From: Yuukianura sp. NJ FZ-2021
Taxonomy: Eukaryota
Direction: 5' to 3'
Length of the DNA stretch: 64,000 nucleotides
Assembly: GCA_046563655.1 (NCBI GenBank)
Contig: CM102285.1
Coordinates: 14,570,001-14,634,000, forward strand
Below are positions 1 through 64,000 of the stretch, in pieces; the first letter of the stretch is position 1; the number at the start of each line of letters is the position of its first letter. Under the pieces are notes generated by a model. It was not told the DNA's origin. It saw only the letters and a list, made by a program, of their open reading frames with translations, and made no database searches. The translations under genes were made by a program, and so were the position numbers.

Positions 1-1398
1 GAAAAAACCAAGGTCGGTAAACAAAGAAATACTTTTTAACTCCAGATTTTTTGAAAATTTGAGTTATTGCCTAACCTGTTAAAGGAAGTTCAATTTGGTT
101 GTCGAGGAACCTTGGGGAAAAAATAATTTTGAAAAATAAAATGAAAAAAGATTTCAGTTTCTACGTGTCCTTTGGACATCTCTGTACAAAAAAAAATGGT
201 TGCCACTTTTTTTCTGCTTTTAACAAGAAATAGTTGTGACCAATTTTTTTAACTTTCTCTGTAGAAAGTAAAAGCAAAATGTGTGACTTTTTGATTATCT
301 TTGTAGAAAAAGTGTTTCCAGTAATAACTTCTTTTTTGTTAGTTTTTGGGCAAACAAAAGCAGTTGTGACCTTGTTTTTCCTGTGACTGTTTGAAAATAG
401 TTTTGTTAGTGTTGTAGTAAATAGTAGATGATGACTACTGAAGATAGAAGAGACATGATGGGAACATTGGAATTGGATTTTGTGTTTTGTTGGCTAAGGA
501 GAAAGTGACGGAATTAATAATGCTTTCTCCTCGGAAAGGAAGTCCATGAAAATCGATAAGATCCAACACGGAGTTGGGAATGGGGGTCCTTAGGACACAT
601 CTTACCAAGGTCCCCCTACTCACTGTGACAGTTGACTATCATACACATGCACTATAGTAACCTAATCTCTCTTGTCATCAGCATTCAACCTCATTCTAGT
701 TACTTCGACACACAAAGTCAAAAGAAAGTCATATAACGGATGTTGCCGGTACAATCTGACAATATCCAGTCTACTTCAACCTTTGTTATTATGATAAAGT
801 AGCTACGCTTCAGCCTTACGGCGGTTACACACACATAGTTACATAACTTCAACCTTGCTGGTTACATTCTTACTCGGGGAGTTGATTGTTGAACTATTTT
901 TATGTGGATGGTTACAATGGTTGTTGTTCAACCTTACTTCAACCAGGGCAATCAAAAGTTTTCACTCGACGTGATCTCGGCTTGAGTTCCTGTTCGCTTT
1001 TACTTTTTTTTTGAAAACAAAAAATACTTTTTTGAACAACTTTTGTTTAATTTTGAAAAGTGATATGGATGCTCATTCGGAAATTAGTGGAAGCGCTTGG
1101 AGCAGGAGAAAGTTTTTCTCTCTTTTTTCTCGTTCCAATTTTCAATCACAAAAACATGACTTACGTCTCCGCTTTTGTGCTTTCCGCTTCTTTTTTTTAG
1201 TTAAATGAAGTTTTTAGTTCATTTATTTCTCCACTTCTGCATCTCAAATAAATTAAAAGATAATCAAAGAAGATACTTTTAAAAATTGAAAAAGAGAAAG
1301 TAGAATAGGAAATGGTAATAAATTAAGAAAAGGAATAAATTAAAGTGTGTCTAGGCAGAAATGGACTGCTTCTGCGTGGTGAAACTCTTCTGACGAAT

Positions 1399-3533
1399 TT
1401 AGTTGTTCTGAGGGACGGGGAGGGAAAGAACGTGTTGGGTTGAAATGATTTCGGCCACATCAGGGGCCCACCATGGCTCCCACGGAGAGCAGCGGCATTC
1501 ACAGGCCTTCGTATGTGGGTTGCAAGTCCCACCGGAGTAGGAGTGATGTGGATTCTTCTTGCAATGGGCGTTACACGCATCCTTCGACCCCGAACAGCAG
1601 AGTTCACCGAAGTGAACTTCCTGGAAGAAAAGAATGAGATTTTACTTTCCTGCACACCGACATGCCAGCACACCGTTGTTCCAGCACACCCGTATGCTGA
1701 AACACCAAAACTTTGGCACACCGAGATTTCAGAATGCCAAAGTTTTAGCACACCGGCATTCCAGCACACCAAAGTTTTGGCACACCGGCATTCCAGCACA
1801 CCAAAATTTTGGCACATGGAGATTCCAGCACACCACCAATTTGGCACGACGAGATTCCAGCACACCGAAACTTGGCACACCAGCACACCAAGAATTTTTT
1901 TTGGCTTACCGGTACTGGGCATGAGCAAGTACAGCAACCGCCGGAGGTCAAAGCTCCGCCCACTTTGCCATTCTTTTTGCAAACGGCCTTGCATTCTGTA
2001 ACTTTGTCATCTTCATGATGTGGTGGTTTTCCGCAACCTTCTGGTTTCCCCTCCGTGGCATGGTGGGGTGGTGGTGGCTGTTCGTGGTGGGGCGGTGGGG
2101 GTGGTGGCTTCTCATGGTGGGGCGGTGGGCGTGGTTTGTCGTCTGGTGGGTTTCCAGTGTAGCTGGCGCCACCGGTCAACGTTATTGAGCCTGGAAAGGT
2201 CAAACGAAAAGTGTAAAATTTAGAAAAATTGTGTAGTTGTACTCAACACATCTAAATTCATAATAAAAAATGAACTGGAATTTTGAGTTTCAAAATTTTG
2301 AAAGTATTCAAAAATTTTAAAAGTGACATAGAACTTACCCTGAGCTTGTCCAGAAATGGTCGTGAGGGGTTTAAAAATAGTAGCCACATTGGCAGCGATT
2401 CCTGAGGGGGTAAGCGGCTTAATGAAACTGTAGAAAGCGCTCTCCTCTTCTGCAGCTTCAGCTGTTTCGTCACGTGGTGCACTTGGCGTATCGCTGGAAG
2501 CGTCTTTTTCAGCGTCTTTGATAATATTGGGGTGGAAGATTCCTCCAGTGAGTGTGTTGAACAGATGAGGAGGACTGAGTGGCTGGATTGGCCGAAACAG
2601 AGCACCAATCGTGTGGTGAATTGTCGGAATTCCAAGTGTCGGAGCTTTTTCTTCGGAAGTTTCGGCTTTGGTGGGAGAATTCGGAACGGCTTCGGTTTTT
2701 TTAGCTTCTACGTCTGCGCCGACTTCAAGTTTGAACGGTTCCGCTTTTTCGCCAAAGTTGTTGATCGTTCCTTGTCCGTCGGTACTCAGGCTCACGAAAC
2801 CTTTGAACGGTTTTGTGTCCACGCCTGCGTGACATTCAAAAAATTAAATTTCGAAATTTTATGAAAAAAAAATTTCTATAGTTTTTTAATAGGCTTGAGC
2901 AAATTTTGTTACGGCTTTCTGAAAACGTTGTAAGCAAGTAGCTATCGCAGAATTTTGTAACCGCTTTCCAAAAACGTTGTAAGCGAGTAGCGAGCGTGAA
3001 ATTTTGAAAATTTTGTGTTTTCGCTTACCAGCAATTCCAGCGGCGTATCCAGCCCCACCAGCAGCCACTCCTTTGTCGTTAGCCACCCCACCAGCGACTC
3101 CAGCCGCAACTCCTTTTCCAGCATACCCGAACTCTTCATTTACGAAGTGCCCTTCACCAAAAGCCGAAACTCCGCCAAAATTATCTTCGTTTTCCGAAGG
3201 GACGATGGAGGGGGGACTTATCAAGGGACTCGGAACATCTCCAGCTTCGAGTTCTCCCGCTCTTGTTTTCAAGTCTCCCGCTACAGCAGTGGCTTCCTTT
3301 GCAGCATTTAACTCATTCTGCGCTGGCGCTATTTCTGCAACTTTGGTGGGAACGGCCAAGCACAATCCCACGGTCAGAAGCGAAAACTGCAAAAATGAAA
3401 GGTCAAAACAAAATTTTAATTGAAAGTTTTGTTTTAATTTAAGTTTTGAAATTTTAATTGAAATTTTTAACTTTTATGGAGTACTAAATTAAATTTTCCT
3501 GATAGAACTTACAAGAAAAGAGACGCTCAACAT
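1399..3533 (-). CDS. Secreted modular precursor (~455 aa): signal peptide, acidic spacers, Gly/Ala-rich and amphipathic segments, Pro/His-rich tract, two C-terminal CSalphabeta defensin-like domains
   Basis: Five phase-compatible GT-AG exons: 3533-3513, 3386-3029, 2824-2339, 2190-1910, 1620-1399. N-terminus MLSVSFLFSLLTVGLCLA. C-terminus has CKAVC...GGCCTCSC and CCSGSKDACNAHC...GGTC...CECRC. TATAA (3603-3607) and TCAGT Inr (3573-3577) lie upstream on the minus strand. Confidence 0.8.
1652..1890. repeat. Intronic minisatellite, ~31-bp unit (cagcacaccaaaattttggcacaccggcattc-like)
   Basis: Degenerate tandem copies fill intron 1621-1909 and explain the spurious overlapping ORFs there. Confidence 0.9.
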
Positions 3534-4187
3534 TTTGAATATTTAATTTTTGTTTACAAAAGTTTCAGAGAGACTGAATTGGTTAAGGGCCCCCGGTAGC
3601 CCTTATAAAGGCACACGGAACGTCATCATCAGTTTCAAAAATAAATTCGGTGTTCTACTTTTCCTAATTTTAGGATTTCGGTGATTGAGTTTTCATTTTG
3701 GGGGAAATAACGGAAGTTTTTGGAAAATTTTGAGAAGTAGGAGCCCTTGTCTAATTCCCGTATGTTCTAACTGTTCTTGGAAACAAAAGGAGCATCCCTT
3801 CATATCTTGGAACACAAATTTTCAATTTTTCAATTTTTTTTTTCAAATTTTCAAATTCCAAATTTAATTTGGCGGGAAATGAGGTCAAAAGGTCAACGAC
3901 GCCAACCGTCCGCAGATCTGCAGATTAAATTTTCATGGCAAAGAAAGCAGAAATAAATTTCAGCCAGCGTGGAACTTATGCAGTCCAGAAAAAAATTCCG
4001 GAATTGGTACAAGGTTCAATTAGGAACTTAATTAGTTTGGTCAGTTAATCAATTAAGTCAGTTAGCTTAATTAACTTCCTAGTTAACTTTAAGTCATCTT
4101 TAGTAAACTCTACTTGGTCACTCATTTTCTAAGCATCTTTGAATAAGAATTGACACTTTTTGGCTAAAACTTGCGAAGTTTAGGAAA

Positions 4188-4547
4188 ATGGCTGACGAAG
4201 TTATTTTGAAACGATTTGAAAATCCGGACGAAGTTCGCGCCATGTCCAAGGGGAAGTTCGAGGTCGTCGAGCTCTTTGGGATGACGATTGGTCGTGCGAC
4301 GTACGAACCTGGCTGGAAATGGTCCGTAGACGTAGCGCCTGCGCTGAATCAGCGATTCTGTACCGTGGAGCACCACGGTCTGGTTTTATCCGGATCGGCA
4401 ACGGCAGCATTTACCGATGGATCGGTAATTGAAATGAAGGAGGGTGACCTGTTCTACATTCCGCCGAAACCACACGACTCTTGGGTCGTCGGAGACAAGC
4501 CTTACGTTAGTCTGCATCTGGGCGGAGCCAAGGACTTCGCAAAATAG
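4188..4547 (+). CDS. Intronless cupin-domain protein of bacterial type (119 aa)
   Basis: Single ORF with GRATYEPGWKWS, EHHGLVLSG and GDLFYIPPKPHDSWVVGD (cupin His motifs). No introns, unlike its neighbours. Confidence 0.85.
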   Translation: MADEVILKRFENPDEVRAMSKGKFEVVELFGMTIGRATYEPGWKWSVDVAPALNQRFCTVEHHGLVLSGSATAAFTDGSVIEMKEGDLFYIPPKPHDSWVVGDKPYVSLHLGGAKDFAK

Positions 4548-6175
4548 TAACATCAACGTTTTTGACATAAGTCAACTTTGTTAACTTTAAGTACGGAAAG
4601 CTACATTAAGCATTGACTGTCTGTCTGTCTGCTTCAAAAATAAGACAAAAATGGGAAACAAAAAGTCGGAATTCAGCGCCAGTTTGTTTGTTTATAAAAA
4701 ACGACATGACCTTGAACAAATTCACTTACAAGTTAGGTCTTTACATCAGTCTCAGTCATTTGAGTTTTAATTGACGTATTTTTAATGGACGTGTTAATTT
4801 TCACGCCTCCAAAGAGTCAACAATCAATTGGTAACTTTTTGCGGTCTTTGTTATCAAGTTATGCGGTTACGCAAGAGTAATTCTAAGAATTGGCTTCGAA
4901 GGGGTATGTTGCTTACTATGCTTAAATTTGGAATTCAAGGTCAAATTCAAAGTGAAACATCAGTTGTCAAAAGCATAAAGAAATCTGCAAGCAGTGGACC
5001 ATTTGGTACCGTCAATTTTTCATTCATGTTTGAAATAATTCATCTGTTCATCCACGGTTATCGTTTTTTGTAAACATTTTTTGGTGTGTAGGTAAGTAGC
5101 AGAATATTGTCCGTTCTGCACCACTGGAGTTGGCATTAATCCCCCAGCACAAAGTTTCTATTATTAGCCCAATTGTCTACTTTTTCACTAATCCTCAAGG
5201 GTAGGATGATGACGAACTTTTTAACAAGTCGTGACAATGTAAACAGTATTGGATTTTGAGGTAAGTTTTCTCAGAAGTTGTCAAACTTATTAAACTTCAT
5301 TAATTCAATCGATCTTTTGTTCCTCTCTTTTCAGTTTTTCGATAAACATTGGACAGTCACCACGATTCTACTAGAAGACGTGGACAATCATCGTGAATCT
5401 AAGAAGACCAAGACGTATCGTGAATCCAGAAGACAAACGGACACCACCGTGAATACTCCCAGTTGTGTCCACTCGTCAATCACTAACGACACTCCGTCGT
5501 TGTTCTTTGGATCTCAATTAATAGTCAAGCATTCAGTGACCTTTGCCCGGCCCGTTAATCTATCTTGGACACAATGGCAGACTCCAGGTAACGTTGGCTG
5601 GCATCACCTCTGTCTTTGTCCTACAAGTGACAGCCCATATCCAATGCAAATGCAACTCTGAGAGGGTAGTTTTCCATGGTTTAGCTTTGTCAGTTTATGG
5701 AAATGGCAGAAGGTTGGATACAAGAGGGCCGAAGGACATTGTGGTCAACTAGTTTTTACTTGACCTTGTCCATTGTCAAACAACAACCCAACAATGCATC
5801 CCAGGAAAACAAGAGAGCTTTGACAATGCATCAATTACCAGACAATACTAGTCTGTATAGACCTCCGCCTTACCCCGCCTAGGGATAAATTGCAAGAACA
5901 ATGGAAAGTAACGCGTAATTTCCAATTATGTAAAAATACCATAGAAAGCCTTACCAGTTCCTGTCCAACCTCAGTCGTCGTCTGTTGCTATCCATACCTA
6001 CAAAAAAAACTTGCGGTTGTGGTGTCATAAGAAGAAGAAATCATTTGATTAACTTAACTTTTAGTTCATGAAGAGGAAGAATAGAAACGACAAAAACCAA
6101 TCAAGAAACTTAATTACTCCTTTCAATTACAGTACAAAAACAACTGTCATCAAGGTTTCTCTCGTCATCCTCGTC

Positions 6176-6955
6176 ATGATTGCAGTCGCCATTGTATCGG
6201 TCCTCGTCACCCTGGCCACAGTGTCCAATGGCCATCACGAAGCGGTAAGGTGCTAATTAGTAAATACAACTTGATGTAAGTGTACTTTTTTATGTAATTG
6301 TTAATTGAATTTGTTGATTTAAGGATTTCCCTAGAAAAGCCGTGGCTGTGATTAACACTGGAACTGTTGGAAGTGTCACTGGTTATTTGGAATTGTCGCA
6401 GTCTGACTACGCAGCTCCGGTCATCATCACTGGAGAAATCAGCGGGTTGACACCAAATGCTAAACATGGATTCCATGTCCATGCCCTCGGAGATGTTCGG
6501 AAAGGATGCGGAAGTACTGGTGGACACTTCAATCCACAAAATGTAAGTCCGACCAAGTCAAGGTCACCCTCACCATCAAGGTCAAAGGTCACGTTATGAT
6601 TTAGTTGTTTTTGAAATTTTAGGTGAATCATGGAGCACCTACTGATGGCATTCGCCATGTCGGAGATCTCGGCAACATTGAGTCGGATGCTTCCGGAAAA
6701 GCGATCGTCAACATTGTGGATGCAGTGATTTCTCTGGCTGGTCCGCACAATATTGTCGGTAGAGCCTTCGTTGTGCATGCTGGAACGGACGACCTTGGTA
6801 CAAAACCAGTTTTCAAAATTTCAAAAAAAAAGTTGAATTTTTAATTGATGCTTTAACTTTTTTTTTTAATTTTAGGCCGAGGAGGTTTCGAAGATAGCTT
6901 GAAAACTGGTCACGCTGGAGATCGAATTGGTTGTGGAATCATCGGAACCCTTTAG
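6176..6955 (+). CDS. Sod3: Extracellular-type Cu/Zn superoxide dismutase
   Basis: Exons 6176-6244, 6324-6542, 6623-6797, 6876-6955. Motifs [35 protein letters not shown]. Hydrophobic N-terminus; the true start may be further upstream. Confidence 0.92.
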
Positions 6956-7375
6956 ATTTGAAAAGAAAGCTGCATTTAAACTTAATCGTTTCAATTAATT
7001 AATTAAACTTAAACTATTTTGTCACAAACTTCATGTACAGATTTCACGGAAATTTTGAGTCTAAAACGACATTAAAAAGCGACACTGCTCGTTGATTCCA
7101 AGTTTCTTTACAAAAAATTATTGGAATCCCGAAAACCGAAATAATCTAAAAAAAAAAAAAAAGTTCAAAAACTTTGTTATGGAATTGCTGCAAGCGTAAA
7201 TCACAAGTAAAATTTTGAAACTGGACATCCGTTGACCTCTGTTGGTTTAATTGGCACTTAAGTTAAAGTAATTAGTAATTACAAGATTTAATAGCGACGA
7301 ATAGCAATTAAAAGTTTGAACAAGTTGGCACAGAGGTGTAAGGAAATCTTTTTAGGTCAACTGTCAAGTTCCATC

Positions 7376-9872
7376 ATGAAGGTTTTTCAAATTTGTATAA
7401 TTTTAAGCTTTTATAAGGTAAGGGCAACTTGAAAATATGAAATTTGAAAACCTTGATTTGAAAACTTGGTTTGAACAGTTTCGAGGAAACGACGCTTTCC
7501 CAAATCCAAACTTGGACAATGAGAGTCCAAATTTGAACGTTGAAAAGCGCTCGATGCCGGCGGGGGCACTGGAAGAATATTTGGGTAAGGTTAAACAAAC
7601 TTTTGATCTTTAAAAAATAAAATGTTTTTTGAAAATTTTTCGAAATTTGATTTTTAGAAAACTGTAACAACACTCTGCTCCTGGCAGAACGAAAGTCATT
7701 TAAGTTCATCTCTCCAAATTACGGCAAAGGAGATGAGTATCCAGCAGGAATCAACTGTCAATGGTCGTTCATTGTAAGTTGACCTTTGACCTTTGACCCA
7801 ATGACCTTGATGAATTTCTGTTACCCCAGGGGGGGGGGTCTGTGGTCATTCATAGTAGTAATTTGACCTTTGAACCAATGACCCTGATCTGTTACCCCAA
7901 GGGGACAAAATGGTCATTCATTGTAAGTTGACCTTTGACCTTGATGACCTTCTGTTACCTTAGGGGGACAAAACGTGTACGGCTGAGTTTAGCTGTAAGG
8001 AGCTTGACCTCAACCCCTCCGACGAATGCAGTGAAGACGTCCTTGAAGTTGTGGATGGAATGGGCGGAGCTGAGCGGTATTGTGACAAGGTCATTTTTGA
8101 CCAACCAGTCAAACCCACCCAGGGGACGCGTGACCTCTACGTGACCTTTCGCTCAAGGATGGCCGGTGGTAGTCGTAAGGGGTTCCTTTGTGAAGTAAAG
8201 TGTGCACCCAAAACATGTAAGTTTAGTACTACTAACTCTATGGGTCAATTTGACCTTTGACCTTTGACCTTTTGAGCTTAGCGACCGCTAAAGAGCTGCA
8301 AGTGAACCAGGAGAAGAAGGTGGATGGTCGATGTGGTGAGTCAAAAACTTGACCTTTGAACTTTGACCTTTTTAGTTTTTGACCTTGACCTTTGACCTTT
8401 TTAGTTTGTGGACTGCAAAACGCTGATGACAGGATCGTTGGCGGAGAGGATGCGAAAATGAACGAATTTCCTTGGCAAGTTGCAATCGTCTTCACGGGAA
8501 CTCGGTCGCCCAAATGTGGTGGCAGGTTGGTTTTGATTAGCTTCAAATCTTAATTAATTGTTAAAACTAATTAATTTTTATATAAATTAATTTTAATATA
8601 TTATTTTACAGTATTATCAACAACAATTGGGTGTTGACTGGTGAGATGTTGAAAATAATTTCACTAAACCTGAATAAATTCTAATCTAACTTAAAAAAAT
8701 TTTTAGCTGCTCATTGTTTTCGATTTGAGAAATCGGAGCCGCATGAAATCGAAGTTTTGTACCACGCAAGGTCACTGGACATGACCATGCAGAAGGACTG
8801 GAAAGATGTTGCTCTGGGGTAAGGTCAAGGTTATTCCAAAATTTTACAGTTTTTCCAAATTTTGAAGTTTTTTCAAAATTTTGAAAACAGACAAGCAGGA
8901 TCCATTCGTGGCTCGGGATACAAAGACAGGCAGATGACAGACAAGGAGGAGAAGACGCAGAGATTCAGCGTTGTGGAAATCATCAACCACGCCAAATTCA
9001 CGGCAAAGTGAGACATCCAAATTTTTCAAAATTTTGAAAAATTTTGAATTTTTTTTTTGAAAAATTAGATACGACTATGACGTGGCTTTGCTGAAGCTGG
9101 ATAGGAAGATTGACTTGAGCCACCCCGATGCACCCACCCCTATCTGCCTCCCTGCGGTGGGGTATGAAAAAGATTACGTTGGGGAGAAACCGTGGGTCGT
9201 TGGGTGGGGCCTTCCAGATGAAAAAGCCGGTGGGACCACGCGCAGTCTCCAGAAACTGGCAGTTCCAATACTACAGACTTCCAAGTGCCAGAAGTGGAGC
9301 TCACATGAGTTGACACAGCGCATGCTCTGTGCAGGGTGAGATACAGCATTTCTGTTCAAAATTCCGAATTCAAAGGTTAATTCAAAACTAAATTAAAATT
9401 TTGAATTTTCACTCTTTTTCGAATTTCACAAGGTATGAAGAGGGAGGCAAAGATGCTTGCACTGTAAGCGAACTTTTTTTTATTTGTATAAATTCTACTT
9501 ATTTAATTTTTGAAACTTTTCGGAATTTGTTTAGGGGGACTCAGGAGGTGAGAAGAATTTAAACTTTATTTTTAAAACTTTTTGATCATTTTTTGAAAAT
9601 TTTGACTTTGTGGTTCAGGGCCGTTGTCTCTGAAGAGACCGAATAATCAGTGGGAGCAAGTTGGAATTGTTTCATGGGGAGAAGGATGTGCACGGAAGCA
9701 AAAACCCGGGATGTATTCTAGGGTCACCGGTTAGAAAAATTTTGAAAATTAAAATTTCGAAAATTTTGAAATTTTGAAAAAGAAAATGAAAAAAAATTTT
9801 TTTTCAGAGTTTCTTCAGTGGATTAACAGAAACACGGCTGGTGCAACTTGGTGCAAGGCTACTAAAGGCTAA
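7376..9872 (+). CDS. CUB-domain trypsin-like serine protease (zymogen)
   Basis: Signal peptide [15 protein letters not shown] domain (SPNY...YP...NCQWSF), activation site R-IVGG, triad TAAHC / DVALLKL / GDSGGPL, and DAC (Asp189-type S1 pocket). Many short exons; stop at 9870-9872. Confidence 0.9.
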
Positions 9873-10421
9873 AAACAATTTCCATACACAGTTTCACTCT
9901 TAAAATTAATAAATTATTAATATAAATAAATTTTTATAATGTAAACAAAAAATATTTATGACAAGAGTCAGAAATTATTCTCAGCTTTACATTTGAATTT
10001 AAAAGTAACTTCTAACAACATTTACTAGTATTTCATGACGCTAAACTGCGACTAAATTCTGAATACATTTCGAAAACAAGTGTAAAATCAAAATTCTGAG
10101 AAATTTTGGACAGTGGAACGAGGTTTTCATAAATTAGTTTTACAAAAAATTGGACAGATTTTGCGAATAATTCGAAAATGCAGTACATCCTACGTAAAAT
10201 TTGAAAATTTGGAATTTAGCAAACCAAATTGTTTTTTTTGGAACCGAACATATCCATATCCACACCATAAATTTTTACTTTTTACACGTTCCATATCATG
10301 TTTAAAAAGTGGTATAAATATCTGTTTTCAAAATTCCGAACTTTTGGAATTCAACTACGTTGTCAAAATTTAAATCAAACCATAAAAATACTTTCTGGTA
10401 GAAAAACTTTTGTTCTCAACC

Positions 10422-11234
10422 ATGCTGCGAATGCAACATGTTGTGGCGGTGATCATGCTAACTCAGGCTGTCTTTGGACGTAAGATTAAAGAAATTTAAA
10501 AACAAAGACAACTATTGCTAAGAAATTGTGTATTTTGAAGAGGTTCAGATTGCTGACTTTAATCCAAACGAAGGTGATCTCGATGTTGGGAGTCCTGACT
10601 ATAATCCAAGTGAAGATTACCTCGAACCTGACACTCCTGACAATTTAAATGTAGGTGACCCCGTTGCTGCGATTCCTGAAGCGGAAGTCAACGGTCGGAG
10701 TGTGTACGGGTACGTAAAATTTATATCAGCACTATTCATTATTAAGTAGCGAAAGCTACTTAATGGTTAGTCTGTCTGTTAGCCTTGTCTGTCTGTCCGC
10801 CCTTCCTTCCGTTTGTATGTCCGTCTTTTCTCCTGTTTGGTCCTTTCTCCTGTCTGTCCGTTTGTCTGTCTGTCTGTCCTTCCGCCTGTCTGTCTGTTTG
10901 TCTGTCGGTCCGTCTTCTATCTGCCAGGTACGAACTACTATTATGCTATATTGTGTAAAAATTTTATTATTTCACCTTTTTAGGTTTGGGGGATATCGAC
11001 GCCCGTACTTTCCCTGGGTTAGATTAATCTATTATAATTTTAGTTAAACTTATTTAAACTAATGTATTTTCTAAAACTGATTTTCAGTGCGGACAATTTT
11101 ATGGTTCAGTTGGTGGATTTCGGTGTCCAGACGAAAGTGCATGCAGGAGAAGATGTTGTCTCAGAGGACTATCAGGCGGAAGATGTGTTGGACGGTTTGG
11201 GTCGAGGTGTAGATGTGATTATTGGTTCTGGTGA
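10422..11234 (+). CDS. Defensin-like peptide 1 (signal, acidic propeptide, one 8-Cys CSalphabeta domain)
   Basis: Four exons; last exon CGQFYGSVGGFRCPDESACRRRCCLRGLSGGRCVGRFGSRCRCDYWFW*. TATAAA at 10313. Confidence 0.85.
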
Positions 11235-11313
11235 ACTTTATGAAACAATGTTCTCCAAAGTGCAAATTATGAAAATAAAGCTGTCCTGTTTTTCGAAATT
11301 TTCAACACTTACT

Positions 11314-11575
11314 TTAAGGTCAAAAGGTCAAGTGATTTGTTCTAAAGAAACAGAAGCGGAAACATCGCTGCAAGGAATTTCTGTTTTGGTCTCAGAAATT
11401 GCAATTCCAGCCATCCTAATGTTTTTCCCATTTGGGTTTTTTTTTCGAGCCACGGGTCCTATTCCGTTTTGAAAACTTTTTCAAAATTTCAAAACCAAAA
11501 GTTTTTTTTTCTTGAAAACTTTGAATATGACTTTGTGCAACTTTTTGCTCACCGGCAAGGAAGTACTGAACAAAA
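11314..11575 (-). pseudogene. Degenerate copy of the last two exons of CAP gene A
   Basis: Shares caagtgatttg, ccagcca and caccggca(a/g)ggaagtactga with 14532-14780 (the VAQYFPAG exon and the terminal exon). Confidence 0.7.
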
Positions 11576-12001
11576 GATTATCAAAACTGAAACTTTTGAT
11601 GAAACTTTGACATTTCAATTCTTGCAAATTGAAATTCTGAGAATTCACGACTTTTCAAAAACAAATTTTTACAATTTTCAAAACAGGCATAAAATTCTCG
11701 GAAGTTTTTGATACGTAGTTTCCATAATTAATTTTTACAAAGAGATTCCACAGATTTTGCGAATAATTTGAAACGTTATTACTATACCTAAAACTTGAAA
11801 ATTTGCAATTTTAGCAAACAAAATTACTTGTTGAAACCAGCATGTTAAATATCCACAGTCTAAATTTTACACATTTCAAATCATTCTATATGAATATGAA
11901 AAAAATTCTATAAATACTATGTGTTTCCAAAATTCCAAAACTTCATTTACGGTATCATTTCAAACTCTTTTCTGCAAGAAAAACTTTTGTTCTGATAAAA
12001 A

Positions 12002-20233: not shown

Positions 20234-21506
20234 TCATGCAAAATTGGATTTGAGTGTTCTGAAAACCTGGAAACAAAGAGCAGGAAGCACTAAAATTTTT
20301 GGAAGTTGGATGCCACCAGCAGCATTGGGTGGGTCGGATGGCCTTGGCTTAGCTGGAGATGGGGCTGCAGTGGTGGGGTCATCTAGTACAGGTGATCCTA
20401 GTGGGAGAACATTCTTTATTTCATCCTCGCCAGGATAATTTCCTGTTCAAAACAAAGTTTTCAAAAAAAATTTTTTTTTTGTCTTTGAAATAAATGGATT
20501 TTGAAAAACAGAAACTAACCTGGTGGATAATACTGAGCTACGATGTAAAATGCTCCGTTCTTTGCCTGTGCGTAGACCATACACATTTCTTTGGTTTCTG
20601 CAACAAGGGACAACGTTTTAAAATTTCAATACTTTTTAAACTTTCTAAAGTTTTTAAATTTTGTTCAAACACACCTTTCCATACGAGTTGTGTGAAGTGA
20701 GCAATTTCATGGAAGACTGATGCATTACGATTTTCAAAGTTGTACTTTTTGATTTCGTCGTACCAAGATTGTACAGTGTCGCTCGCTGGTTTGAGTTGCG
20801 GTGTGCTGTCAAAGTACAAGGAAATACTTTCTCCACATACCATGCCTATCTCACGATCAATGTCTTCTGAGTTTGTCGCATTTCCTTCGTCACCAACATT
20901 TGCATCGTGATTTGCTGTCCATTGAGCACTTTTGCAAATCTGAAAGTAATCTATTTTCGTCAAAGTAATCGATTATTAGTCAAAGTAAACGTTTGAGTGC
21001 CGATTACTTGGACAAGTATTCGGAGCTTTTACGGTAACCCTAAAAATTTAGAATTTGGCATAGGAAACTGACCTTCTGGTTCAGCACCAAATCATGAGCG
21101 CCTAAAATTGATCAAAAATGTTTTAGAAAAGCAATCGATTTCAGTCACAAAGTCATTAAGAGCGTGGGAAATTGATCAAAAAAGTGTTGCAATTTGAAAA
21201 ATTGTTCAGTGAATTTTTTTTTTAAATTTTGAAAACGTTTTTAACCATGTTGTTGCCGAAATTTGTTGTGGGCTTCGAGTCCTTCTTGCGCCCACTTCAT
21301 TCTGTCTCCATCCGAGGGAACGTCTTCCTCCTGTTCAAAAATGGTAAAGGAGAATTTCAAAAAATGTTCAAAAAACTTTTCATTTTTTGGAAACTGACCA
21401 TAACATTTCCGTTTTGGGTAATGCAAGGAGGAACTTCTGCTGCAGCAAAAACTGGTTGACTAAGGACCCAGACTCCAACGAACAAAATTGCACCGCCAAA
21501 ACCCAT
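20234..21506 (-). CDS. CAP/SCP secreted protein E
   Basis: AHNKFR, CGESIS, WYDE, AHFTQLVWKG; Pro-rich stalk; tail LPKILVLPALCFQVF. Confidence 0.85.
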
Positions 21507-38018: not shown

Positions 38019-38601
38019 ATGATGAAATTCGTTGTTGCTGCCCTTTTGTTGGTCGCTGGAGTCGCCAACGCCGGAGAGGTCGCTTTCGAAGTCTGCGGTA
38101 AGCTTGAAATTACGAACTTTTTGGGCCGAAATACTTGAAATACTTGACAAAAACTTGAAATAGTTGCCGAAATACTTGAAATACTCATGAACTACTTTGT
38201 TTTTAGACTCTGCTGAGCTTGCCCATGTTGAGAAGTTCGAAGTGTCTGGCTGTGAAGATGGGTCCACCTTGTGTGAATTCGTTGTCGGAAACACCTACAC
38301 CTTCGCCCTGACTGCCAACATCCATGCCGACCATCCAGCATCAAACAGTCTTCCATTCGAAGTGACTGCCACCGTCCTTGGACTGCCCGTGACGTTGGTC
38401 AAGGGAAATGCTTGTGACAGCACCCCGTGCCCAATCACTCCAGGATCCGTTGTCACCGTGACGATCGAAGAGCACATCTCTGAGGCCGTCCCAAGGCTGG
38501 AGGATGTCAAGGTCAGCGCCCGTGTCTGGCACGAGGAGGCTGGAAGCAACAGGGACGCTTCCCTCTGCGCTTCCATCCAAGCTTCCATCGTTGACGCTTA
38601 A
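38019..38601 (+). CDS. ML-domain lipid-binding protein (NPC2 / mite group-2 allergen-like)
   Basis: Two exons; signal MMKFVVAALLLVAGVANA; six Cys including NAC...CPI..G. TATA at ~37908, CCAAT and GC boxes upstream. Confidence 0.88.
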
Positions 38602-61445: not shown

Positions 61446-64000
61446 GACCGTGGCAACCGACAAGAACGATTTCCTTACGTCGTACTTCAAGTTTCCAGAG
61501 AAGACGGACACTACAATAAGATTCTTTGACCGCGGAGAAAAGTACAGTGTGTATGGATCTGATGCCCACTATGTTTCTCAAGAAGTACTTGGGATTACTA
61601 CGGCAGTGAAAAAGTTAAGGAGTTTGGATAAGCAGAAGACCGTGGAGTACTTTAATATCAACCGATCGCGATTTGAACGATTTGTGCGTGAACTACTGCT
61701 GGTCAAGCAGTACTGTGCAGAAGTATGGGCTGAATCGAAGGGAGTTTGGAAACTGGAATTCAAGGTAATCGAGTCATTGGCTTAACTAATTATTCTGGTC
61801 TATAAAAAGTGTTAATCATGTTTATATTTACAGGGATCTCCTGGAAATTTATCTCAATTTGAAGAACTGCTGTTTTCCAATACTGAAGTGACTGTCAACA
61901 ATGGTGTTATTGGTGTCAGGATGTCCGGTGCCAGCGGGAAAGCGAAGGTAATTCGTCTCTTAAGTTCAATCATTCAATCATCAATCAATTAGTTTCAAGT
62001 TTTGAATTGTGTGTATTGTGTCAAAGGTCGTGGGCATAGCACATGTCAATACGAATGAACGGATCCTGAACCTCATTGAATTTGTTGACAACGACACTTT
62101 TACAAACTTCGAGTCCGTTCTGGTCCAACTGTCGCCAAAGGAAGCCGTTGTAGCAATTACTCCTACGTCGCATTCACAGGGTGGTGACGACAATAAAATT
62201 GAGCAGGTACGATCTTAACTTAAATCAATTACTAATTACTTCTTCGATGGTCATCAGCATGTCATGTGTCACTTTTGTTATCCAGATACTTCGGAGGAAC
62301 AATATTTTGATAAACGAACGGAAAACGTCGGACTTTGAGAAAGAAGATATCGAATTAGACTTGAAACAACTTTTGAAATCCACTTCAGCAGTTTCTGCCA
62401 AGTCCGAACTGGAAAAGAAGTTGGCCACCAGTGCTCTCACTGGAGTCATCAAGCATCTCGATCTCATGTCAAACGATTCTTACTTGGGTCAATTCTGTCT
62501 CGTGCCGTTTGATTCCGGACTCTACGTCAAAATGGATTCAGCCGCCTGTGAAGCCCTTCATCTCACCCAGAATCAGCTTGAATCCAAAAATCCACGAAAC
62601 CTTACCATAACTTCAGTCCTGGACAAATGCCGAACGGCTCAAGGTCATCGTCTCTTGGCCCAAATACTCCGTCAACCGCTTGTGGACCGCCAGAAATTGG
62701 AAGAACGATTGGATTTAGTTGAAGTTTTTGTGCTGGAACCGCTGAGAAGGAATGCCATTTATGAAGATCACTTGCGCAGAGTTCCGGACTATCAGTTACT
62801 GGCAAGGAAGTTTTCAAAACAAAAAGCAACGTTGCTGGATTGCTACAAAAGTTATCGCTGTTTGACCAAGTTACCAAAACTTGTTGAGGACTTGGACTCT
62901 TACGATGGACCACAAAAGAAAGTCATTGGTTCGTACTTTGTGGGGCCACTGAATGCACTCAAAGCGGACTGCTCCAAGTTTGTGGAAATGATCGAATCTA
63001 CGCTGGATCTGGAACTAGCTGACCAAGGAGAATTTATGATTCGACCAGATTTTGACGAAAAATTACAAAGTAAGACAAAAAAAAATGTATTTTCAAACCT
63101 CTCATTTAGCAAAATGATTTTTTTTTAATTTTTTTAGCTTTGAGAAACGAAATGGATCGATTGAAGGGAGCAATGGAGGTGGAAGCTAATAATACTCGGA
63201 AATCACTTCAGGTTGAAGACAAAGTACTCAAACTGGAAAGCGTCAGTCATCTTGGATTTCATTTTCGAATGACACTGAAGGTTACTCACTAAAACTTCAA
63301 GATCAAGAATTCGTGATCTTTGATTTTTTTTTGAATTATTTGAACTTTTGTTTTTAGGATGAAAAAGTGATGAGAAGTGGAAATTTTACAATTTTGGATT
63401 CGAAAGCCGGCGGTGTGAGATTTCGGACTTCGAAGATGGATGCACTTAATGAAAAATATGCAAAGCAAATGACTTTGTACGAAAAGGAACAAAAGGGGTT
63501 CAAGGAAGAACTCATGGTAGTTGCATGTAAGTGTGAACAAAATTGTTTCAAAGAGTTTTAATTAAGATGATTAATCAAATGATTCCGTTTCAGCTGGATA
63601 TCACGGATGCTTCGAGCAACTTGGCAACATTCTTGCTCTGTTGGACGTAATTCTGAGTTTCGCTCATGTTTCTGCCAATGCGTTAATTCCATTTGTACGT
63701 CCAAAACTACATCCCAAAGGCACCGGAATTCTGCGTTTTGAGCAACTCCGGCATCCGGTAACATTTGAAAAAAGTTTTAGCGGTTAATCAACAGTATTTA
63801 CTTCAGGTCAATGACAAACTTAACGACAATTTTAATGTTTTTTTTTTCAGTGTGTTGAGTCTCAGTGTGGCGTCAGTTTCATTCCAAATGACGTTCGACT
63901 GGAGAAAGGGAAAGAATCGTTTCTGATTGTGACTGGACCAAACATGGGCGGGAAATCGACGTTTCTGAGATCAGTTGGAGTGGCCACTCTGATGGCCCAC
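61426..64000 (+). CDS. MSH2: DNA mismatch repair protein MSH2 (3' truncated by window end)
   Basis: [86 protein letters not shown]. Confidence 0.96.

Follow-up and report, generated by a model that had tools for sequence, protein, structure and literature searches.

Few animals are as rich in foreign genes as springtails, and such genes are thought to aid life in the soil. The genome paper on Folsomia candida reports 809 foreign genes (2.8%). Of these, 39.9% are bacterial, RNA supports 466, and 330 are common to Orchesella cincta; the genes were validated by linkage and phylogeny (PMC5490193). Here we analyzed a stretch of 64,000 nucleotides (GenBank assembly GCA_046563655.1, contig CM102285.1, positions 14,570,001 to 14,634,000; the whole stretch is called the window hereafter), in which positions 4188..4547 of the + strand hold an intronless coding sequence, TAG stop codon included, for a 119-aa single-domain cupin of bacterial type. 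The readable parts of the supplements on F. candida (PMC5490193) and O. cincta (PMC4987106) make no mention of this cupin family, although an entry elsewhere in the supplements could have been missed. A literature search combining Collembola, horizontal gene transfer and cupin found no paper, and one combining cupin, horizontal gene transfer and arthropod returned, as judged by its listing, nothing on this family.

We found that the locus as a whole is best explained by the transfer of a single bacterial cupin gene to the germ line of a springtail-like hexapod, where the gene is intact and probably working, and we put the probability of this explanation at roughly 0.8. We hold the bacterial origin of the cupin and its integration with high confidence, with good support for a soil or marine bacterium as the source of the horizontal transfer. 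A sequence-only reading of the window had already proposed a horizontal transfer, and this is still the best reading, given the bacterial relatives of the gene and its embedding in host DNA.

The cupin gene is an intact member of a bacterial family

An open reading frame (ORF) listing places an intact ATG-to-TAG ORF of 119 codons exactly at 4188..4547 (+), and a tblastn search finds one cupin copy in the 64-kb window. When we aligned the predicted protein with 28 homologs, we found no internal gaps, and starts and stops coincide, which makes the ORF a full-length copy of a bacterial gene, free of introns; the intact 119-aa single-exon ORF of the sequence-only reading stands. The ORF has a GC content of 52.8%, compared to 36.3% and 36.7% in the 1-kb flanks and 38.1% in the whole window, so that the flanks are AT-rich and host-like, as had been claimed. 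The N-terminus (MADEVILKRFENPDE) is hydrophilic, and no signal peptide is apparent in it when judged by eye, again in agreement with the earlier claim. In Pfam, the protein scores 26.5 bits against Cupin_2 (PF07883; cut-off 27.2) and 23.9 bits against Cupin_3 (PF05899; cut-off 23.5), and precomputed PF07883 assignments are present on most of its bacterial homologs. Scans of the cupin with NCBIfam and PADLOC gave no family, and a PHROGs scan gave one weak, meaningless match ('DNA methyltransferase', E = 0.006).

To find relatives, we searched 5.8 billion proteins, a collection that does not hold the window's own protein, with phmmer and scored 8000 candidates. All 8000 have E <= 1e-3, with a top match at E = 5e-52, and the best 120 of the 8000 show 66-73% identity over 96-100% of the query at lengths of 117-163 aa; the named members among these 120 are Gemmatimonadota and Woeseiaceae. 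Prokaryote genomes, taken at one genome per species, gave at least 599 pattern matches, and relatives are encoded in 596 of 599. The best 80 genome loci cover at least nine phyla (Pseudomonadota 25, Acidobacteriota 24, Gemmatimonadota 19, Myxococcota 4, Verrucomicrobiota 3 and four more phyla with 1 each). Among metagenome contigs, 556 of 597 pattern matches are relatives, the best 80 lying at 62-73% identity and none above 73%. The nearest Atlas clusters, among the matches listed, are 83-100% Bacteria where taxa are recorded. Overall, the cupin shows 61-73% identity to bacterial and metagenomic proteins, and among the matches listed none is closer. No named eukaryote occurs among the matches listed from the protein search (best 120 of 8000), the metagenomes and the Atlas clusters. 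Viral contigs gave one marginal 24-residue match among 16 pattern matches, and we rejected a viral vector for the cupin on this basis.

In a maximum-likelihood tree (81 rows, 118 columns, quick search), the window protein falls within the bacterial radiation, in an unresolved polytomy with no supported sister, so that the tree points to no particular donor. The closest relatives among the matches listed are non-metazoan and the window protein is nested among them, and the family's donors range in GC content from 36% to over 70%. The sequence-only reading had likened the ORF to a prokaryotic cupin family that is small and uncharacterised, and the protein does belong to such a family; all relatives that we found are bacterial, the motif string that it quoted corresponds to conserved columns of the bacterial family in our alignment, and the homology searches and phylogeny that it proposed point the same way. 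Taken together, these comparisons establish, at the level of sequence, a bacterial ancestry for the cupin.

Four marine-looking bacterial metagenome contigs of 36% GC (L102, L110, L116 and L126) carry the cupin with a distinctive sub-family signature (ATCAF, GP.PHDSW, HFQGADKYA). We considered them as eukaryotic orthologues and rejected this, as L126 has the dense ORF packing of a bacterium and the four reach only 66-67% identity to the window protein.

The gene is joined to springtail-like DNA on both sides

The window is eukaryotic, with CAP, ML, GSKIP and MutS_III domains on long ORFs in Pfam. To place the host, we used the MutS exon at 62154-63125, an MSH2 exon. The sequences that match it best come from Orchesella dallaii, O. 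cincta, Folsomia candida and Allacma fusca (51-52% identity), ahead of those of crustaceans (44-47%). In an MSH2 tree of 17 rows, the window exon sits on a long branch and groups with those four springtails with a Shimodaira-Hasegawa-like approximate likelihood ratio test (SH-aLRT) support of 100. This makes the host a springtail, or an animal very closely related to springtails, of a genus other than those matched.

We then compared window positions 1-12000 with the 80 bacterial loci by translated and nucleotide searches. Apart from three tiny translated matches, similarity is confined to 4196-4547, with DNA identity of at most 74%, and no bacterial neighbour gene lies beside the cupin within the 12 kb compared. 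The flanks have no other copies within the window except for microsatellite-like matches, and a transposon carrying the cupin was rejected on that ground.

Five public DNA runs from two studies contain the stretch, and we compared contigs of four of them (X1-X4) over 2800-6200; these are contigs, not raw reads. The 5' junction is bridged by X1 record 4 (3750-4249), and the 3' junction is bridged by X3 record 22 (4494-4685) and X4 record 28 (4397-4887). X4 differs from X1-X3 in organism label, sample and study. The linkage of the ORF to its flanks, on which the sequence-only reading depended, is thus carried by contigs of two studies in place of raw long reads. Two X3 contigs over the ORF, records 20 (4220-4375) and 21 (4472-4608), with 7 differences over 156 nt and 10 over 137 nt, respectively, show that the cupin is also carried by divergent haplotypes, or by a second, closely related species in the pool. 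In the non-coding flanks, run contigs skip 38 nt (3411-3450) and 64 nt (5404-5469), which are indel polymorphisms.

A repeat search of the flanks identified a 13-nt direct repeat (GTTAACTTTAAGT) with its upstream copy at 4082..4094 (+), 93 nt before the ATG, and its downstream copy at 4580..4592 (+), 33 nt after the stop codon. A pattern search finds two exact and two one-mismatch copies in the window compared to 0.2 expected. As an empirical control, we asked how often 120-nt flanks set 360 nt apart have at least 13 nt in common, and this occurs at 2 of 414 other window positions. No longer duplication between the cupin flanks was found beyond the 13-mer. The repeat is a candidate for a target-site duplication, or for microhomology, from the insertion.

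Between the upstream copy and the ORF lies an AT-rich leader (4095..4187, +; 32% GC) that is without similarity to bacterial flanks; it holds an in-frame TGA at 4140-4142 and leads into the start context AAAATGG. We presume that a host-side promoter and 5' untranslated region lie in this leader. No sigma-70-like promoter was found upstream of the ORF on the + strand, and no bacterial promoter or terminator remnant is meaningfully placed around it. The 3' trailer (4548..4700, +) contains the hexamers AATAAG (4639-4644) and TATAAA (4693-4698), as well as a (TGTC)n microsatellite around 4617-4632. Hexamers of the AATAAG and TATAAA types can act as variant poly(A) signals. The (TGTC)n tract varies in length or sequence between runs, contigs of X1 and X3 have loose ends at 4618, and similar tracts occur elsewhere in the window.

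The product is a predicted cupin barrel with a candidate metal site

An AlphaFold model built on the homolog alignment has a mean predicted local distance difference test (pLDDT) score of 93.9 and is all-beta, a plain single-domain cupin barrel. Foldseek matched this model to many cupins with probability 1.00 and ranked the Mn cupin TM1459 first (E = 9e-6, TM about 0.6, 19-21% identity). VIA-align returned 70 chains with Z >= 8, the top rows all being cupins, and Z values of 10.9-10.3 go to a mixed group of CENP-C, TM1459, phosphomannose isomerase, DddK, KdgF and others. Searches of the PDB by sequence and by profile gave nothing below E = 0.06 (best E = 0.06-0.15). On the model, the protein thus belongs to the cupin superfamily with its double-stranded beta-helix fold. 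The predicted fold says 'cupin' and carries no functional information, because CENP-C, phosphomannose isomerase, DddK and KdgF score equally.

Canonical cupins have a motif 1, G(X)5HXH(X)3-4E(X)6G, and a motif 2, G(X)5PXG(X)2H(X)3N. In the alignment of the present family, E61, H62, H96, D97 and H110 are invariant, and weak profile matches place H96 at the position of the motif-2 His in oxalate decarboxylase and in cupin phosphoglucose isomerase. In a working view that we hold loosely, the window cupin would be a cytosolic, probably metal-assisted enzyme or binding protein for small molecules. Any enzymatic role on an exogenous or stress metabolite is less likely than not, and the detoxification or metabolite modification suggested by the sequence-only reading is a guess.

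Gene neighbourhood in bacteria does not supply a function. We classified 150 immediate neighbours (of 151 called) from the 80 loci, and the most recurrent families are GNAT (5), glyoxalase/VOC, DUF2834, MFS and MacB/FtsX (3 each), with several at 2. These recurrences follow clades, as with CDGSH and DUF2834 in Woeseiaceae. As no family recurs in more than 5 among the 150 neighbours, we rejected inference of function from neighbourhood.

Integron attC sites follow the core-pair pattern RYYYAAC ... GTTRRRY. We found an attC-like core pair downstream of the cupin in 1 of 151 bacterial loci, compared to 5 of 150 in an upstream control. In the locus with the downstream pair (L089), a strongly folding 61-nt palindromic element (-34 kcal/mol) bounded by GCCCAAC ... 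GTTAGGC begins about 12 nt into a 200-nt slice that itself starts near the end of the cupin stop codon. There is no integrase among the 150 immediate neighbours. An integron-cassette origin as a general property of the family was rejected on the 1/151 versus 5/150 count, and on these sequences the family appears to be cassette-borne occasionally, not generally. An Rfam scan of 14 bacterial loci gave a sole match, Acido-Lenti-1 (RF01687), at 5376-5422 (-) of an Acidobacteriota genome locus (L007), with 40.7 bits against a gathering threshold of 37 and 28 nt downstream of the cupin gene; the available part of the paper describing this motif makes no mention of integrons.

Constraint, activity and rival explanations

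In the history that we propose, one bacterial cupin gene would have entered the germ line of a springtail-like hexapod and would now be chromosomal, between host genes. The inserted bacterial DNA would be the ORF only, from start to stop codon (about 360 bp), set between the two copies of the 13-nt host-like repeat as a possible integration scar. The intact gene, with its conserved family residues, would be transcribed from host sequence in the AT-rich 5' flank, and its product would be a cytosolic cupin of about 13 kDa that binds a small molecule in the barrel, with a possible metal held by invariant E61/H62, H96 and H110. The cupin is probably a working gene because it is intact and has retained the residues conserved in the bacterial family.

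To quantify this retention, we compared the window protein with 160 bacterial homologs and counted columns conserved in at least 97% of them as near-invariant. We found that 38 of 39 near-invariant columns are kept, the single change being Y117F. The variants listed within the ORF (4451 G>C, 4502 T>G and 4544 A>G) are all at third positions and synonymous, a count of three out of three that is itself weak, and the indels listed fall in the flanks, where there are several, and none inside the ORF. The view that the cupin is an expressed gene under selection is slightly favoured, and domestication, as put forward by the sequence-only reading, is a possibility.

Composition does not date the transfer. 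GC content at third codon positions (GC3) is 58.3% in the cupin, compared to a bacterial median of 76% and 39-61% in host exons, and the codon score (mean log ratio) is -0.03, compared to a bacterial median of -0.24 and +0.16 to +0.30 in host exons. Among the 160 bacterial homologs, 12 fit host codon usage as well or better, and some bacterial homologs have equal or lower GC3. We therefore rejected amelioration as proof of age, since the host-like composition of some bacterial homologs means that the intermediate composition of the cupin does not date its arrival.

Besides these 12 homologs, several observations weigh against a working transferred gene as we propose it. Seven residues (F30, N54, H63, K94, G112, K115 and F117) are unseen in the 160 bacterial homologs, and two of them, F30 and N54, take the place of glycines that over 95% of homologs conserve, a possible sign of relaxed constraint; H63 adjoins invariant H62, giving EHHG instead of EH[VLI]G. 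The terminal branch of the window protein in the 81-row tree is 0.41 compared to a median of 0.13. The canonical HXH pair of motif 1 is absent from the family by our reading of the alignment, and from the same residues H62 and H110 might serve as its substitutes. No RNA run is on record among the public runs containing the stretch, and no canonical AATAAA occurs on the + strand between 3952 and 7616. Repeats of 13 nt are not uncommon within 2 kb of AT-rich sequence, and the placement of this one is a post hoc observation. Runs X1-X3 come from one sample, which may be the source of the assembly, and the bridging X4 contig is about 98-99% identical, so that presence is seen in very close relatives only. 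Finally, one X2 contig departs from the reference at 4223, 36 nt into the ORF, and continues for about 255 nt in unlike, AT-rich sequence; this departure may reflect a structural variant or disrupted allele, but also a second locus or an artefact that a repeat caused in the assembly graph.

Several of these points are also what a neutral passenger would show, that is, a genuine, recent and silent insertion yet to decay, in which the conserved residues reflect selection in the donor. The public runs lack RNA, the canonical poly(A) signal is absent downstream, and the seven family-atypical residues include the two at conserved glycines. In addition, the gene is seen only in the two organism labels, A and B, with contigs about 98-99% identical, the GC content of the ORF is still far above the 36-37% of the flanks, and in the available part of the F. 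candida report only 466 of 809 foreign genes have RNA support (PMC5490193). In contrast, a very recent transfer would need an unsampled donor, as nothing above 73% identity occurs among the protein, GTDB and metagenome matches listed; the bacterial flanks are gone right up to the ends of the ORF; and the ORF variants listed are synonymous, with indels listed in the flanks alone. We consider a passenger unlikely, if clearly the strongest of the rivals to a working transferred gene.

We next considered an old, vertically inherited eukaryotic gene, or a eukaryotic or viral intermediate, in place of direct transfer from a bacterium to a springtail. Unannotated eukaryote genomes are outside the reach of the search, springtail orthologues below about 73% identity would rank beneath the best 120 of 8000, and one Atlas cluster is recorded as 'Bacteria 83%'. 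However, the cupin has no intron where its neighbours have introns of about 80 nt, its 61-73% identity is to bacteria of many phyla and places it inside the bacterial radiation, no named eukaryote occurs among the matches listed, and the viral side offers only the marginal 24-residue match among 16. We regard this explanation as very improbable.

Least credible of all is an assembly chimera or contamination, a bacterial read or contig misjoined into a host scaffold: the ORF is an isolated GC-rich island, three of the four compared runs come from the one possible assembly source and one X2 contig diverges at 4223, but the bacterial-like part, only some 350 bp long, stops precisely at the ORF borders and brings no bacterial neighbour gene, no bacterial genome or metagenome contig above 73% identity among the matches listed offers a contaminant source, and a chimera is unlikely because contigs bridge both junctions, one of them from the second organism label and study.

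Neighbouring features of the host locus

Downstream of the cupin and on the same strand, starting 1.6 kb away, is a secreted Cu/Zn superoxide dismutase (SOD) gene (6176..6900, +) with exons at 6176-6244, 6324-6542, 6623-6797 and 6876 onward, the first of which encodes a signal peptide. The three introns, with borders read by eye, are GT-AG and 79, 80 and 78 nt long. The Pfam domain Sod_Cu is split over two ORFs, which match profile positions 1-58 (E = 9e-16) and 58-118 (E = 3e-18). With this gene as its neighbour, the cupin does sit among intron-bearing host genes, as the sequence-only reading had held. Upstream of the cupin, an ORF at 2886..3392 (-) has a signal-peptide-like N-terminus and a Gly/Ala-rich body and is covered by contigs of both organism labels; Pfam finds no family on it, and we treat it as a host gene of unassigned family.

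Further along the window, Pfam identifies a CUB and trypsin-like protease gene (7964-9336, +), a CAP-domain gene of secreted type (20538-20969, -) and an ML (MD-2-related lipid-recognition) gene of secreted type (38191-38598, +). The neighbourhood had been described as an arthropod defence locus. The arthropod part is upheld by the springtail-like MSH2, and 'defence locus' is a loose label for the run of secreted SOD, CUB-protease, CAP and ML genes.

At 1323-2242, both strands hold long overlapping ORFs of 43-45% GC with Pro/His-rich repeats (PPPHHE...) and 'FQHT.../CWNAGV...' units. Pfam finds no family on these ORFs, and the region probably represents a satellite or a gene coding for low-complexity repeats. 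Across the whole window, Rfam and tRNA scans gave no RNA families and no tRNAs.

Comparison with known systems

The locus is a clean case, in that one complete bacterial ORF and nothing else lies in unique host DNA beside a secreted SOD gene, with a possible insertion scar. If the gene is expressed and conserved among springtails, it would help to date and explain the capture of a protein that is very common in soil bacteria; a silent gene would just add another recent insertion to those known. The candidate target duplication might also bear on how naked bacterial DNA enters animal chromosomes. We tentatively raise a bolder reading, although the odds lean somewhat against it, in which the window protein would be the first animal member of a widespread uncharacterised cupin family, captured as a bare ORF with a 13-bp target duplication, selected in springtails and remodelled in its active-site strand (EHHG). 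Were this so, a soil animal would have gained small-molecule or metal chemistry otherwise lacking in animals, and there would be a eukaryotic handle on the role of an abundant soil-bacterial cupin.

The closest relatives in sequence form an uncharacterised bacterial family of cupins of about 118 aa, annotated as 'cupin domain-containing' or 'RmlC-like / quercetin dioxygenase-like'. The window protein is of the same length, aligns with them without gaps at 61-73% identity and keeps 38 of their 39 near-invariant residues. It is unlike them in standing in an animal genome with AT-rich eukaryotic flanks, in its seven unseen residues and in having one of the longest terminal branches. The closest solved fold of similar size is that of TM1459, the Thermotoga maritima Mn cupin (PDB 1vj2 and variants), with a VIA-align Z of 10.7 and a root-mean-square deviation of 2.4 Å over 100 residues; in contrast to this fold similarity, identity is only 19-22% and the motif-1 histidines of the canonical metal site are missing from the window family.

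Among genes that arthropods have acquired, the intradiol ring-cleavage dioxygenases of spider mites, as far as the accessible text describes them, are likewise a microbial small-molecule enzyme fold taken up by an arthropod on chemically complex food (PMC9167512). Those enzymes are secreted, belong to an expanded family and have been characterised biochemically, whereas the window cupin is single-copy and has no signal peptide. The nearest parallels are the foreign genes of springtails themselves. In the available parts of the reports on F. candida (PMC5490193) and O. cincta (PMC4987106), these too are bacterial-type intact ORFs linked to native genes, supported by the same kinds of evidence. 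For many of them expression and sharing among springtails are known, whereas the window cupin is known from DNA alone. Gene acquisition by springtails is thus already established, and what is new here, and well supported, is an uncharacterised bacterial cupin as the transferred gene.

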